Source: Escherichia phage F2
Direction: 5' to 3' (one strand)
Sequence record: NC_054913.1
DNA: 64,000 nt
Made by a program: the position numbers and the translations under genes. Each line of letters opens with the position of its first letter. Within the stretch, counting starts at the first letter, position 1. Of the stretch, positions 7,028-12,466 are shown piece after piece. A model generated the notes under the pieces. It had not been told where the DNA came from. It ran no database searches and saw nothing but the letters and a program-made list of their open reading frames with translations.

Positions 7028-7297
7028 ATGTTTGTAGTTCATGATATTACAGATGGCAAAAACACCACACGTGACTACGGTCACGTTAACATGTTCTTTC
7101 GAGACTGGCCATTGTTTCGTTCAGTAAAAGACGCAGAAATATTTAAAGAGTGTGTTGAACAAGGGTTCATCTACATTTCAGAATACTATGTTGAAGGACT
7201 CGGTAAATGGATTACCACTTATCAGAAAACGCTGAAATCGCTTCTAGATGAAGTGGCTTATAATAGAACCGTAACCAAAATCGAGGACATCAAATGA
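7028..7297 (+). CDS. hypothetical protein (89 aa)
   Basis: ORF directly upstream of the ligase gene with a 4-nt overlap. Confidence 0.5.
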   Translation: MFVVHDITDGKNTTRDYGHVNMFFRDWPLFRSVKDAEIFKECVEQGFIYISEYYVEGLGKWITTYQKTLKSLLDEVAYNRTVTKIEDIK

Positions 7298-8787
7298 TTT
7301 TAGATATTTTAAACCAAATAGCTGCGATCGGTTCTACTAAAACAAAACAAGAAATCCTTAAGAAAAATAAGGACAACAAATTACTTGAACGTGTGTACCG
7401 TTTAACATATGCACGTGGTATCCAGTATTATATTAAGAAATGGCCAGGACCTGGTGAAAGGTCTCAAGCGTATGGACTTCTTGAATTAGATGACATGTTG
7501 GATTTTATTGAGTTCACATTAGCCACTCGTAAACTCACTGGTAATGCTGCAATTAAAGAGCTCATGGGTTATATCGCTGATGGTAAACCTGATGATGTAG
7601 AAGTCCTTCGTCGCGTAATGATGCGCGACCTTGAAGTAGGTGCTTCAGTGTCTATCGCGAATAAGGTGTGGCCTGGACTTATTCAATTGCAACCACAGAT
7701 GTTAGCATCTGCATATGATGAGAAATTGATTACTAAAAATATTAAATGGCCCGCATTTGCCCAATTAAAAGCAGATGGTGCTCGTTGTTTCGCTGAAGTC
7801 CGCGATGGTGGTGTTCAATTCTTTTCTCGTGCCGGTAACGAATACCATGGTCTTACTCTATTAGCGGATGAACTAATGGAAATGACTAAAGAAGCTCGTG
7901 AAAGACACCCTAATGGGGTTTTAATCGACGGTGAATTAGTTTATCATTCATTCGATATTAAAAAGGCTGTGAGCTCAGGAAATGATCTGTCGTTCTTATT
8001 TGGTGATAATGAAGAATCCGAAGAAGTACAAGTTGCAGACCGTAGCACTTCAAATGGTTTAGCAAATAAATCTCTTCAAGGGACTATTTCTCCTAAAGAA
8101 GCGGAAGGTATGGTTCTTCAAGCCTGGGACTATGTTCCTTTAGATGAAGTCTATTCTGATGGCAAAATTAAAGGTCAGAAATACGATGTTCGTTTTGCTG
8201 CTCTTGAAAATATGGCTGAAGGCTTTAAACGAATTGAACCTATCGAAAACCAGTTAGTTCGTAATCTTGACGAAGCTAAAGTGGTTTATAAAAAATATGT
8301 TGACCAAGGTCTTGAAGGTATTATCCTTAAAAACCGTGATTCATACTGGGAAAACAAACGCTCTAAGAACCTAATTAAATTTAAAGAAGTTATTGATATC
8401 GCTTTAGAAGTTGTAGGATACTATGAACACTCTAAAGACCCTAACAAATTAGGTGGTGTCGAACTCGTATCACGTTGTCGTCGTATTACAACCGATTGTG
8501 GTTCAGGGTTTAAAGATACAACTCATAAAACAGTTGATGGTGTAAAGGTTCTTATTCCTTTAGATGAGCGTCATGATTTGGACCGTGAACGATTAATGAC
8601 CGAAGCTCGTGAAGGTAAATTGATTGGACGTATTGCTGATTGTGAATGCAATGGTTGGGTTCATTCTAAAGGACGTGAAGGCACTGTAGGTATTTTCCTT
8701 CCAATTATTAAAGGGTTCCGTTTTGATAAAACAGAAGCGGATTCGTTTGAAGACGTATTTGGACCGTGGTCCCAGACAGGTTTATAA
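7294..8787 (+). CDS. 30: ATP-dependent DNA ligase
   Basis: 497 aa; N-terminus collinear with T4 gp30 from recall (MIL.ILN.IA.IGSTK.KQ.IL.KNKDN.LL.RVYRLTY); adenylation motif KADGAR. Confidence 0.9.
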   Translation: MILDILNQIAAIGSTKTKQEILKKNKDNKLLERVYRLTYARGIQYYIKKWPGPGERSQAYGLLELDDMLDFIEFTLATRKLTGNAAIKELMGYIADGKPDDVEVLRRVMMRDLEVGASVSIANKVWPGLIQLQPQMLASAYDEKLITKNIKWPAFAQLKADGARCFAEVRDGGVQFFSRAGNEYHGLTLLADELMEMTKEARERHPNGVLIDGELVYHSFDIKKAVSSGNDLSFLFGDNEESEEVQVADRSTSNGLANKSLQGTISPKEAEGMVLQAWDYVPLDEVYSDGKIKGQKYDVRFAALENMAEGFKRIEPIENQLVRNLDEAKVVYKKYVDQGLEGIILKNRDSYWENKRSKNLIKFKEVIDIALEVVGYYEHSKDPNKLGGVELVSRCRRITTDCGSGFKDTTHKTVDGVKVLIPLDERHDLDRERLMTEAREGKLIGRIADCECNGWVHSKGREGTVGIFLPIIKGFRFDKTEADSFEDVFGPWSQTGL

Positions 8788-8975
8788 TGAAAGCTTATTT
8801 AGAAACAGTTATTGTAGCTAAGAAGGATGGTGGAGATGTTTCCACCTCTTGCTCTCAGATTATATTAGATTTTCCTAATGAAAATTCGTATCGGGTTTTC
8901 GTAGATAACGTTAATGGGTACGAAAAAGGCCCTAATTTTGAAGTTTATCGTACTTTGCTCCCGATTGTGGATTAA
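8787..8975 (+). CDS. hypothetical small protein (62 aa)
   Basis: ATG overlaps the ligase stop (TAATG); followed by a terminator. Confidence 0.4.
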   Translation: MKAYLETVIVAKKDGGDVSTSCSQIILDFPNENSYRVFVDNVNGYEKGPNFEVYRTLLPIVD

Positions 8976-8996
8976 GAGCCTTCGGGCTCTTTTTGG
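8975..8996 (+). terminator. rho-independent terminator
   Basis: AGAGCC-TTCG-GGCTCT followed by TTTTT. Confidence 0.6.
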
Positions 8997-8997
8997 C

Positions 8998-9011
8998 ATA
9001 AATATAAATTA
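8998..9011 (+). promoter_or_regulatory. putative late promoter upstream of alt
   Basis: overlapping near-consensus CATAAATA / TATAAATT about 20-30 bp before the alt ATG. Confidence 0.35.
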
Positions 9012-9030
9012 TTACTAAAAGGAAAACACT

Positions 9031-11118
9031 ATGTCTGAACAATTAAATGAAGTGTTTGAATCTGAAGGCAGTCTTCCTGTCGTCAATTTGAACCCTAAAG
9101 CTAAAGTTCCACAAGTCTGGAAAATTGGTGATATCGATACAAACATCGTAGTTCGCTTATTCTCTTACCTTTCTGAAGGCGATGCTGTAAAACAAGTTAA
9201 ACTTGGCGACAAATACGCTCATGTTGTTATTATGAGTCTGTCTGAAAAGGGTAATCTCGCTGAATTGAAAAATGGCCTTGGTCCTGCTCCTATTGATGCA
9301 ATCAACACCATTTTCAATACGGTATATGAACAGGTTAAAGCTCTTCGTATGGATGCAGTTCTGTTCCGGTTCCCTACCAAGAAATTGAAAGGACGTGGAC
9401 AACAGCTTCAAACTCTTCTTGCTCGTTTAGTTTCTACTAAAACTGGCGGTCGTTTTAAAGTATTGTCAGCAATGTATCAATTCACAGGTAAACACACCTA
9501 TGTGATGATGGTTCGTAAAAATGCCAACATTGAAGATATTAAAGGCATCCCTAACATTAACACAGAGTTGTACACGAAAGTAGATTCTGATGTTGGCGAA
9601 GTTTATGTGAGTAAAAAGACTGGTGAAATGGTCACCAAAGAAGCGGCTATCGCTGGTTCTATTGCTGCTGTAGAAGAAAAACGTAAAGATAAGCCTGTTA
9701 TTGCTCGTACTAAAATTTCTCGTCGTGCTATTGCAGCAAGTCAATCTTTAGAAGCTGACCGCCAAGAAGGTGAGTTATTCCAGAAATACGAAAATTCTGC
9801 TAAAGAAGTTAGTGGCCCAGCTACAGCCGAATTACTTCCTGAAGCATATGAAATCGTACTAGCCCAAGCATCGTCCACAGCAAAAGGCACTTTAGTTGCT
9901 GATATCGAAAATAAGATTTATAATCGTATTGATGAATCCTTTAGATTTGCTGATGAAGTTTCTTATGGTAGTGTTATTAAGCCAACTTTAGAAAAGTTTG
10001 CTAAGAAAATTAAAACTGAAAAAACAACATCTGTTAAAGCATTAGCTGCTTTTGTTGAAGCTGCAAATGAAATTGCAGACTCTATTAAAGACGAATGGTT
10101 TGAAGATTTTAGACGTGATAATTTCCAACTGGCCGACGACGTTTTAGCTGAAGTATCTGAAAAAACTTGGAAACAACGTAAATCAGCGTTCTTGTCTAAT
10201 GTGATGTATACTTATGCACGAGAATCGGCTAGAGGCACCTTTAATATAACAATGAATCGGGACCCTAAACAATACTCTGTTGCTGAAAAACGAGCTATTC
10301 GTGAATATGCCTCTTCTGCGTATACCGATATCAATAATATGTTGTTAGGTCGTTATAAACCAGATTTTTACGATGTTGCAGATGAAGATGAAGTTAAACG
10401 CGCTATTGATGGTCTTGATTCGGCGTTTTTAAATGGAGACCGTTTACCTGAAGGACTAACGTTATATAGAGCCCAGTCTATCAGAATGCCTATTTACGAA
10501 GCAATGGTTAAAAATAAGGTATTCTACTTCAGAAACTATGTTTCCACTTCACTAGCTCCTATTATTTTCGGTGGGTTTAAAGAGAACGTTGCCCTTGGAC
10601 TTGCTCCTGAAGAAGTTCGCAAAGAGCTTAACATTGACAATAATGACGAAGGTGTTACTATTTCTCCTAGTCAAGTAAGAACAGCTATGCATGCACCAGA
10701 CCAAATCCGTGTTAACGTTGGATGGGCTATTGATGGCGCCCATAAAGTTAACGTGATTTATCCTGGACAGTTGAGTAATCACCCTAATGAGCAAGAAATT
10801 ATTTTGCCTAGAGGCATTCTCTTGCAGATAAATAAAATTACGGATGCGTCATCTGACACTGGTGCAGGTTTAGAATCCAACCTTAAATTTATTCAAGCTG
10901 AAGTCATGTCCTCAGACCAGTTGGACGAAGTTGTCATTTACGATGGTGATGTTCTCATGGAAACAGGCGAGGTGGTTGCTATGACTGGTGAAATCGAATC
11001 AGATGAGCCGATATCGTTCTCCTCATTTGTAGAAAAAACTAGTGCTCCTAAAGGATTGAAATTGTTAGCATCTTTAATGGATTTAGAATCAGTTCCGTTT
11101 AAATTTGTCCAAGGATAG
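9031..11118 (+). CDS. alt: Alt-type ADP-ribosyltransferase (capsid-packaged, modifies host RNA polymerase)
   Basis: 695 aa versus T4 Alt 682; position between gene 30 and gene 54; ART motifs YRAQS (Arg), YVSTSLA (STS), QEIILPRG (catalytic Glu region). Confidence 0.75.
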   Translation: MSEQLNEVFESEGSLPVVNLNPKAKVPQVWKIGDIDTNIVVRLFSYLSEGDAVKQVKLGDKYAHVVIMSLSEKGNLAELKNGLGPAPIDAINTIFNTVYEQVKALRMDAVLFRFPTKKLKGRGQQLQTLLARLVSTKTGGRFKVLSAMYQFTGKHTYVMMVRKNANIEDIKGIPNINTELYTKVDSDVGEVYVSKKTGEMVTKEAAIAGSIAAVEEKRKDKPVIARTKISRRAIAASQSLEADRQEGELFQKYENSAKEVSGPATAELLPEAYEIVLAQASSTAKGTLVADIENKIYNRIDESFRFADEVSYGSVIKPTLEKFAKKIKTEKTTSVKALAAFVEAANEIADSIKDEWFEDFRRDNFQLADDVLAEVSEKTWKQRKSAFLSNVMYTYARESARGTFNITMNRDPKQYSVAEKRAIREYASSAYTDINNMLLGRYKPDFYDVADEDEVKRAIDGLDSAFLNGDRLPEGLTLYRAQSIRMPIYEAMVKNKVFYFRNYVSTSLAPIIFGGFKENVALGLAPEEVRKELNIDNNDEGVTISPSQVRTAMHAPDQIRVNVGWAIDGAHKVNVIYPGQLSNHPNEQEIILPRGILLQINKITDASSDTGAGLESNLKFIQAEVMSSDQLDEVVIYDGDVLMETGEVVAMTGEIESDEPISFSSFVEKTSAPKGLKLLASLMDLESVPFKFVQG

Positions 11119-11152
11119 TTTACAAACACATGGATGTGTGATACTATCATCC
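11118..11152 (+). promoter_or_regulatory. T4-type early promoter (PeSL-like)
   Basis: GTTTAC at 11118-11123, TACTAT at 11142-11147, imperfect inverted repeat GGATG / CATCC around the -10. Confidence 0.5.
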
Positions 11153-11470: not shown

Positions 11471-11479
11471 ACCCCTAAA

Positions 11480-11502
11480 GGGAGACGTTGTCTCCCTTTT
11501 TC
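11480..11502. terminator. bidirectional terminator hairpin between convergent genes
   Basis: GGGAGAC-GTT-GTCTCCC followed by TTTTTC on +, A-run on the other strand. Confidence 0.55.
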
Positions 11503-11503
11503 T

Positions 11504-12466
11504 TTATAGTCCTAAAACTCTTGACGCAGAATTCACCACACCTGTCAATGTGTTTATATTAGACACACCTCCAGCAGTCCCACCTAATCTAGAAAGTCTT
11601 GATACTGCACTTCCTAGACCAGAATCATTCTGATTATTTCCAAACATTCCTGAAACACTACTAATAAGTCCTGATTCCAGCCATTCTAAAGCAGCCTGTC
11701 TATTTACAGCACCTGATTGCATAACGCGATAAGCAAATGTTACATCAAAAACTGTTATCTGATTATCACCGTCATACGTTAACTCAGGAGAAGAGACACT
11801 AACAGGAATACATCCAGTGAACATGACAGCGGTATGTGGTAAACCATTTCGTGCATGTAAATTAACCTGAATATCTGCTTCGACGTCTTGTGGTAAAGCA
11901 CGAAGACCTGTTACAGGGTCTTGGACTGAGTTTACCCAGTCTTGCATTGCTCTAAAGTTAGATGCTTCGGAATCCATTCTAAAGCTTATTACTAACGGGT
12001 CCATTTCACGGCCGGTAATTCGGATGTTCGGTGAGTTATAGTTGAAATCTGTTTCATAAGATAATCGGTTCTCAGGCATTTTTACAGAATAAATCATTAA
12101 ACCTGTATTATTATATGCCATATTGAAGAAGTCTATCAGATAAGATCCTACTGTGAACTCGCCTAACAAGCTTTGTACCGTACGTTGACTCATTGCTCCA
12201 ATCAGATATTTACTTACACCTGATTTTCGAATTAATTTCTGTGTTCCTGCTGTAATCAGGGTTGTTACGCCCTGATTGATATCACCTTGAGTCAATCCTA
12301 GCCAATCAGAATCCAACCCTAAGTTATTATAAGCAAAACTACCAATTGACGAAATTAGTGAAGATGATTTAGTCGACGGTGTAGTAGCAAATACACAACT
12401 AAACATATTGTTTCGTTGGAAATCTGCATTTATAGCTTGGTTATTAAATTCTTCTAAAGAGTACAT
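11504..12466 (-). CDS. 54: baseplate tail-tube junction protein gp54
   Basis: 320 aa, T4 gp54 size and position after gp48. Confidence 0.75.
   Translation of the reverse strand: MYSLEEFNNQAINADFQRNNMFSCVFATTPSTKSSSLISSIGSFAYNNLGLDSDWLGLTQGDINQGVTTLITAGTQKLIRKSGVSKYLIGAMSQRTVQSLLGEFTVGSYLIDFFNMAYNNTGLMIYSVKMPENRLSYETDFNYNSPNIRITGREMDPLVISFRMDSEASNFRAMQDWVNSVQDPVTGLRALPQDVEADIQVNLHARNGLPHTAVMFTGCIPVSVSSPELTYDGDNQITVFDVTFAYRVMQSGAVNRQAALEWLESGLISSVSGMFGNNQNDSGLGSAVSRLSRLGGTAGGVSNINTLTGVVNSASRVLGL

Follow-up and report, generated by a model that had tools for sequence, protein, structure and literature searches.

The 64,000-nucleotide stretch of the Escherichia phage F2 genome analyzed here (sequence record NC_054913.1; hereafter the window) contains a plus-strand open reading frame at positions 9031-11118 whose limits, ATG start and length of 695 amino acids are exactly those given by a first-pass annotation made from the letters alone. 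It lies in a series of genes ordered as in phage T4, with 30.2, 30.1, DNA ligase, alt.1, alt and alt.-3 followed by 54, 48 and 29 on the other strand; the annotation had placed it between the DNA ligase gene and gene 54, where it is indeed found, with orthologues of alt.1 and alt.-3 also in between (Table 1). By sequence comparison the genome is that of a Mosigvirus (RB69/HX01-type) and the gene is orthologous to T4 Alt; its product is very probably an arginine-specific mono-ADP-ribosyltransferase of the R-S-ExE clade that this RB69/HX01-type T-even phage carries inside its head. The annotation had likewise called it an Alt-type ADP-ribosyltransferase (ART), a reading borne out by full-length homology to T4 Alt, shared synteny, the R, STS and E-x-E motifs and the ART fold. 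It had also described the catalytic motif as a non-canonical Q-E, and this description is wrong. The gene alt is a well-known T-even gene with a textbook E-x-E motif, already known and annotated in more than 100 near-identical GenBank genomes, and the value of the present analysis lies in the correction of that motif.

The relationship to known Alt proteins is evident at several levels of comparison. The DNA of the window gene is 98.9% identical to that of gp272 of Escherichia phage HX01 (Mosigvirus, RB69 group), which bears the RefSeq label 'Alt-like RNA polymerase ADP-ribosyltransferase', and a phage collection holds 149 phage records with the gene at 95-99% identity, most of them labelled Alt or ADP-ribosyltransferase. 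The Mosigvirus Alt proteins, among them those of HX01 (YP_010247119) and RB69 (P0005, 92% identical to window Alt), represent the same gene with strain-level substitutions only. Likewise, the PHROG 802 family ('Alt-like'), to which the T4-type Alt proteins of about 680-710 residues belong, is matched over its whole length (positions 1-674 of 674, E = 7e-260) and Pfam PF03496 (ADP-ribosyltransferase exoenzyme) covers residues 413-610 with E = 6e-28, above the curated cut-off; a scan of NCBIfam yielded no model for Alt, alt.1 or alt.-3. BLASTP aligns residues 3-695 of the window protein with residues 2-682 of T4 Alt (gpAlt, NP_049811, 682 residues; genome NC_000866) at 41% identity and 538 bits, and besides this full-length alignment the two share their neighbourhood, the R/STS/E-x-E residues, both motifs for the gp21 prohead protease and an upstream module of a hairpin and a late-promoter-type box. 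Searching PDB sequences with the single window protein returned one spurious match only (E = 0.48); Certhrax, BECa and C3 were reached only with a family profile. Conservation of individual residues is given below from an alignment of 120 sequences, namely window Alt and its T4 counterpart together with 118 homologs from databases that reach down to 37% identity.

The three strings cited in the annotation are all present in the protein, YRAQS at residues 479-483, YVSTSLA at residues 503-509 and QEIILPRG at residues 588-595. The 'Q-E' reading arose because the last of these strings began one residue late and so dropped E587; the local sequence is N-E587-Q588-E589-I-I-L-P-R-G, and the motif E587-Q588-E589 is a canonical E-x-E. 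Both glutamates are Glu in 120 of the 120 homologs, whereas position 588 is freely variable (M 66, A 16, Q 15, K 9, C 7, others), T4 Alt having M where the window has Q. The remaining catalytic positions are nearly as constant, with Arg at position 480 in 119/120, S505 in 120/120, T506 in 115/120 and S507 in 117/120. The E-Q-E triad is identical to that of T4 ModA (E163-Q164-E165) and ModB (E171-Q172-E173). In the profile alignment with PDB sequences, the E-x-E of the family falls on 'NEYEVLI' of C. perfringens BECa, which is also an E-x-E, and on 'GQYELLLPR' of C3-type enzymes, which is a Q-x-E. The position of the C3-type Gln is thus occupied by E587 and not by Q588, and window Alt lacks the Q-x-E of these asparagine-modifying enzymes. 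Alignment with characterized enzymes, which the annotation had proposed as a check, does place the catalytic Glu and Arg in register with those of T4 Alt, ModA, Certhrax, BECa/CPILE-a and C3-type enzymes.

In the ARTC family, the established rule is that E-x-E enzymes are arginine-specific and Q-x-E enzymes are asparagine-specific (cf. PMC8120803). Because E587 stands at the specificity-determining position, the canonical E587-Q588-E589 predicts arginine specificity, as in T4 Alt; E589 would be the catalytic Glu and E587 the Glu that marks arginine-specific enzymes. Whether a motif is E-x-E or Q-x-E predicts if the target residue is arginine or asparagine, and a misread motif would therefore give a wrong functional prediction. 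The substitutions E577A in T4 Alt and E165A in ModA abolished ADP-ribosylation (PMC11404850). The T4 'E577' is a Glu only if counted from the upstream ATG (MMELITE...), in which case it is the second Glu of E-M-E and corresponds to window E589.

ModA and ModB of T4 belong to the same R-S-ExE clade as window Alt and share with it the E-Q-E triad and a local 'EQE[VI].IP' match, but they show no significant overall similarity to it (BLASTP E = 0.12 and 0.34) and are clade relatives rather than orthologues: they are proteins of ~200 residues, made early and not packaged, without the N-terminal domain, linker and C-terminal tail of Alt, and their genes lie elsewhere in the genome. A tblastn search of the whole 64 kb window with T4 ModA and ModB found no homolog, as expected for genes that lie far from alt in T4. 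The bacterial R-S-E exotoxins compared (C. perfringens CPILE-a/BECa, iota Ia, CDTa, Vip2, Certhrax, Vis and the C3 exoenzymes) are 14-22% identical to window Alt, which has ~40 extra residues between STS and E-x-E; delivery also differs, with ejection from the phage head for Alt and binary-toxin pores or secretion for the exotoxins. The same segment measures 83 residues in window Alt versus 72 in T4, with an 11-residue insertion relative to T4 at residues 546-556, where a short extra helix (residues 546-554) is predicted with high confidence. This longer form is present in most of the Alt family. Just past STS, the RB69 protein (P0005) is unlike all other members for ~27 residues (MFPLHKLLLFSVGLKRTLPLDLLLKNV versus LAPIIFGGFKENVALGLAPEEV), a stretch that aligns to window residues ~508-530 and after which near identity resumes; the pattern suggests that the record contains a compensated frameshift or a sequencing error, and it is no feature of the window.

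The annotation had further held that the protein is packaged and made late, and here too the evidence, read by homology with T4, is favorable, in that both prohead-protease sites of T4 Alt are kept and a late-type box lies at the T4-homologous position. T4 Alt resides inside the head in ~40 copies (PMC9026906) and is ejected with the DNA (PMC9026906, PMC2988021). The gp21 prohead protease cuts it at ITE-6 and LTE-619, the second cut removing 63 residues, and leaves a product of 68.2 kDa by mass spectrometry (PMC5694885); as a control, the mass that we computed for T4 residues 7-619 is also 68.2 kDa. At the corresponding N-terminal site E7 is present in 120/120 and L5 in 115/120 homologs, and at the C-terminal site Glu is present in 118/120 and L or I in 118/120; as motif evidence, the (L/I/V/M)-x-E pattern is kept in 97% (N-terminal) and 98% (C-terminal) of sequences. 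The predicted mature window Alt is thus residues 8-633, of 69.8 kDa, derived from the 77.3 kDa precursor, and the conserved sites support the idea that processing at both ends is a general property of Alt. In the structural model described below, both predicted propeptides fall in the terminal stretches of low confidence. The C-terminal propeptide probably has a function, for example in targeting to the scaffold core, because most family members retain its elements YDGD..E.GE and LA...P.KF. Inhibition of the enzyme by this propeptide until cleavage (a zymogen model) is unlikely, given the activity of full-length recombinant T4 Alt in E. coli (PMC11404850). A third (L/I)-x-E, L-M-E at residues 642-644 (10954-10962), lies in the predicted C-terminal propeptide and is kept in 92% of family members; the prohead protease might cleave the propeptide a second time after its release.

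Upstream of alt, the hairpin that overlaps the alt.1 stop codon has a predicted RNA folding energy of -14.2 kcal/mol (8974-8991; z = -3.75 versus shuffled sequences). It escaped a simple terminator scan, since part of its T run is paired within the stem. It probably insulates alt from early and middle transcription upstream. In T4 the same place holds the hairpin AGGCC-TTCG-GGCCT, followed by a perfect TATAAATA and then alt, while the window box is CATAAATA. The 'late-promoter-like box' that the annotation had marked at 8998-9011 reads ATAAATATAAATTA; the claim stands insofar as a late-type box does lie at the position homologous to that of T4, but this box holds no exact TATAAATA. Time-resolved transcriptomics and proteomics place T4 alt among the late genes (PMC9697503), and late transcription of window alt from CATAAATA at 8997-9004 is a reasonable inference. 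Across the window exact TATAAATA is enriched (21 occurrences, expected 8.1 +/- 2.9; none of 100 shuffled sequences reached 21), and 9 of the 21 lie 15-32 nucleotides upstream of a gene start. The same distance from a gene start is found for two variants at position 1, in 3/8 cases for AATAAATA and in 1/4 (the alt site) for CATAAATA, and for 2/86 of the other one-mismatch variants, one of these being the overlapping TATAAATT at alt.

A survey of alt in 59 IMG/VR loci, covering the 48 copies that are first or only at their locus, places this box in context. The box is TATAAATA in 27, CATAAATA in 17, TGTAAATA in 2 and GATAAATA in 1, at 17-42 nucleotides before the ATG (17-37 for TATAAATA and CATAAATA), and a perfect hairpin stands 4-11 nucleotides upstream of it in 40/48 loci, with a TTCG loop in 38. 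A module of hairpin and NATAAATA is conserved upstream of alt across the Tevenvirinae. The C variant CATAAATA is common to lineages down to ~50% protein identity, the exception being one more distant locus (L036, 33%). Searching the literature for CATAAATA in the role of a T4-type late promoter brought up poxvirus and baculovirus papers only. The presence of C at position 1 throughout a clade that includes the group of the window and neighbouring genera suggests that late-promoter recognition tolerates C there, and the conserved module bears on how tolerant gp55 late-promoter recognition is.

An AlphaFold2 model built from a 51-sequence alignment (mean predicted local distance difference test score, pLDDT, 84.9; predicted template-modelling score, pTM, 0.74) divides the protein into four parts, namely an N-terminal alpha/beta domain, a long helical region, the ART domain and low-confidence termini (residues 1-7, with pLDDT <50, and about residues 640-695). 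Column conservation is 0.24-0.56 in the helical linker versus 0.65-0.79 in its flanks, and in blocks of 25 residues conservation of the N-terminal domain (residues 1-250) equals or exceeds that of the ART domain (0.61-0.79 versus 0.35-0.73). The literature that we searched gives no function for the first ~250 residues of Alt, and this domain, with its apparently GNAT-like fold, is a part of Alt that seems to have been uncharacterised so far. The CoA (coenzyme A)-binding motif of GNAT proteins is Q/R-x-x-G-x-G/A. In the Alt domain a strand-loop-helix element reminiscent of the GNAT CoA loop contains the invariant K118 and G121, and the loop K118-L-K-G121-R-G123 is a partial match to the motif, with the G123 position not conserved (G, E, A, S, D). 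A Pfam scan of 18 N-terminal domains at E <= 10 found no GNAT family, and an exhaustive profile search with the domain among 1.84 billion representative proteins gave 70 matches, all Alt-like and none GNAT; the likeness to GNAT is thus a resemblance at the level of fold only, with no membership at the level of sequence. In the 70 carriers the domain is always extreme N-terminal, and nearly all also have the ART domain and the C-terminal tail. The idea of a portable delivery module joined to other effectors is unsupported, nearly all 70 carriers having ART; the four exceptions show a degenerate ART, a partial ART match or no recognisable C-terminal domain. These are distant carriers of the Alt N-terminal domain in which catalytic motifs are degenerate or missing, P0174 (485 residues), P0179 (347), P0173 (1142) and P0177 (541). 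In P0174, LYK stands for LYR, TSCS for STS, and E-N-S-E-IVLPRG for the last motif, with the first Glu of E-x-E lost; the catalytic motifs of P0179 are more degraded than these, P0173 combines a long unassigned C-terminal extension with a partial match to the ART profile, and P0177 has no recognisable C-terminal domain. Truly non-canonical Alt-like proteins do exist, outside this window.

The role of the enzyme during infection can be sketched from T4. Late in infection, alt would be transcribed from the CATAAATA box just behind the UUCG hairpin that ends the ligase/alt.1 unit. The precursor would enter the prohead core, where, to judge from the conserved sites, a gp21-type protease would cut after E7 and E633 and leave a protein of ~69.8 kDa in the head. 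In the next infection, Alt would be ejected with the DNA and, by orthology, would ADP-ribosylate host arginines before any phage gene expression, in a reaction that depends on nicotinamide adenine dinucleotide (NAD+). Residue identity and alignment indicate that R480 and S505-T506-S507 would hold NAD+, that E589 would be catalytic, and that E587 would be the second Glu that goes with arginine specificity. The targets expected by orthology are those established in T4, of which the best known is Arg265 of one RNA polymerase alpha subunit and others include EF-Tu and MazF (Arg84); the T4 modification gives phage early promoters an advantage and weakens a toxin-antitoxin defence (PMC2988021, PMC8120803).

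Several alternatives to an active, packaged, arginine-specific enzyme deserve consideration, two of which concern catalysis. If the protein were an Alt-like enzyme with a non-canonical 'Q-E', its catalysis or target might be altered, for instance toward the asparagine modification of C3-type enzymes; QEIILPRG does occur in the protein, and the Q-x-E of C3-type enzymes is a motif that aligns with this region. However, E587 precedes Q588 to give E-Q-E and occupies the position of the C3 Gln, the two glutamates are invariant around a variable residue, and ModA and ModB, which are experimentally active arginine ADP-ribosyltransferases, are also E-Q-E, all of which leaves this alternative exceedingly improbable and, as a reading of the sequence, already refuted. 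That the protein might instead be an inert pseudo-enzyme serving as a structural component of the core gains something from the description of Alt as a phage core protein as well as an enzyme (PMC11404850) and from the degenerate Alt-like proteins P0174 and P0179; yet all catalytic residues are intact in window Alt and invariant across the 120 homologs, and such a role is hardly credible here. A further possibility is that the enzyme is active but not packaged, acting only after de novo synthesis in the manner of ModA and ModB. In its favour, the promoter box is imperfect, and a literature search for virion proteomics of RB69-type phages (Mosigvirus) found none. Against this, the protein has the full Alt architecture of N-terminal domain, linker, ART domain and C-terminal tail, the extra parts of which ModA and ModB lack; both prohead-protease sites are kept in at least 97% of the family; the gene adjoins baseplate genes and has a late-type promoter module; and T4 Alt is a head protein of ~40 copies (PMC9026906). 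An unpackaged enzyme is accordingly very unlikely.

An alternative of another kind, compatible with a packaged arginine-specific enzyme, is that the protein is bifunctional, its GNAT-like N-terminal domain being a second module for binding acyl-CoA or another ligand, for an enzymatic activity, or for target recognition, delivered together with the ART domain and more than a packaging or scaffold part. The conservation of the domain, at least equal to that of the ART domain, and the invariant K118 and G121 in their strand-loop-helix element speak for this; the failure of both the Pfam scan and the large profile search to find GNAT, the variability of G123 as third residue of the would-be CoA loop, and the existence of GNAT-like pseudo-enzymes (for example 3zj0, itself one of the hits obtained) speak against it, and we consider it unlikely. 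Were it correct, it would cover the whole Alt family, T4 included, and not the window specially.

We retain the reading of window Alt as a packaged, arginine-specific ADP-ribosyltransferase, although some observations count against it. Activity, targets, packaging and cleavage are all assigned by orthology to a studied protein that is only 41% identical, and the range of targets may differ in detail; likewise, with the STS-to-E-x-E segment 11 residues longer, target preference could depart in detail from that of T4. The alt box is only a 7/8 match, and matches with <=1 mismatch occur in the window at a chance rate (174 versus 169 +/- 15), because of which the box is meaningful only through comparison. 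Finally, mass spectrometry of virions from a T4-like Morganella phage did detect an Alt homolog, but the sample also contained non-structural proteins, for example DNA ligase, making this weak evidence for packaging (PMC5384007).

Table 1. Features of the alt locus in the window, with residue numbers referring to window Alt.
Feature	Positions	Strand	Remarks
DNA ligase gene	7294-8787		upstream of alt
alt.1 orthologue, 62 residues, last gene of ligase operon	8787-8975	+	62% identity to T4 Alt.1 over 60 residues, E = 1e-29; same open reading frame annotated in HX01
Terminator-like hairpin AAGAGCC-UUCG-GGCUCUU, then UUU	8974-8994	+	overlaps alt.1 stop codon
Late-promoter-type box CATAAATA	8997-9004	+	7/8 to T4 TATAAATA; 26 nucleotides before ATG; function inferred
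Second 7/8 match TATAAATT	9003-9010	+	overlaps CATAAATA
Shine-Dalgarno AGGA	9020-9023	+	7 nucleotides before alt ATG; read from sequence
alt coding sequence, including stop codon	9031-11118	+	695 residues, 77.3 kDa precursor, ATG start; from open reading frame list
Predicted N-terminal propeptide MSEQLNE, residues 1-7	9031-9051	+	cut after L5-N6-E7; aligns with T4 ITE-6
N-terminal alpha/beta domain, residues ~17-202	9079-9636	+	Alt-family-specific, apparently GNAT-like fold
Helical linker, residues ~203-410	9637-10260	+	least conserved part; all-helical in model
ADP-ribosyltransferase domain, residues ~413-626	10267-10908	+	R-S-E (cholera-toxin/C3-like) clade
R480 codon, Arg of R-S-E triad (putative NAD+ binding)	10468-10470	+	aligned with T4 Alt LYR-S, Arg of Certhrax and BECa
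S505-T506-S507 codons, STS motif	10543-10551	+	aligned with T4 Alt STS, Certhrax YMSTSL
E587-Q588-E589 codons, E-x-E motif of the ADP-ribosylating toxin turn-turn (ARTT) loop	10789-10797	+	aligned with T4 Alt E-M-E, ModA E163-Q164-E165, BECa E-Y-E, C3-type Q-Y-E
Predicted C-terminal propeptide, residues 634-695	10930-11115	+	acidic, isoelectric point 4.1; cut after L631-D632-E633; aligns with T4 LTE-619
alt.-3 orthologue, 97 residues	11177-11470	+	54% identity to T4 Alt.-3, E = 1e-32; hypothetical in HX01
Intrinsic-terminator-like hairpin and T run	11477-11499	+	10-bp stem, 5 GC pairs, TTCTTT tail
Gene 54	11504-12466	minus	

It is also worth noting how copy number varies at this locus. Tandem alt paralogs are found in many related phages (loci L006, L007, L008, L016, L020, L023, L030, L031, L034 and L051), where the second copy usually starts a few bases from the stop of the first and in 8/10 lacks a promoter box of its own. 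In T4, alt.-1 and alt.-2 are what is left of such a second copy, and their only match in the window is the N-terminus of Alt (9037-9369). The window has a single alt copy, with no alt.-1/alt.-2 remnants downstream.

Downstream of alt, the terminator-like hairpin at 11477-11499 would close the alt/alt.-3 unit at its head-on meeting with gene 54. Directly after the alt stop, at 11118-11147, the arrangement GTTTACA - 17 nucleotides - TACTAT, with TG upstream, is similar to the consensus of T4 early promoters. The likeness is one of consensus alone, and the element lies 30 nucleotides upstream of alt.-3, which may accordingly have early expression of its own in addition to late read-through. Within the alt coding sequence, on the plus strand at 10634-10661, there is also a strong sigma-70-like match, TTGACA - 16 nucleotides - TACTAT with TG (10/12), and this match is probably due to chance.

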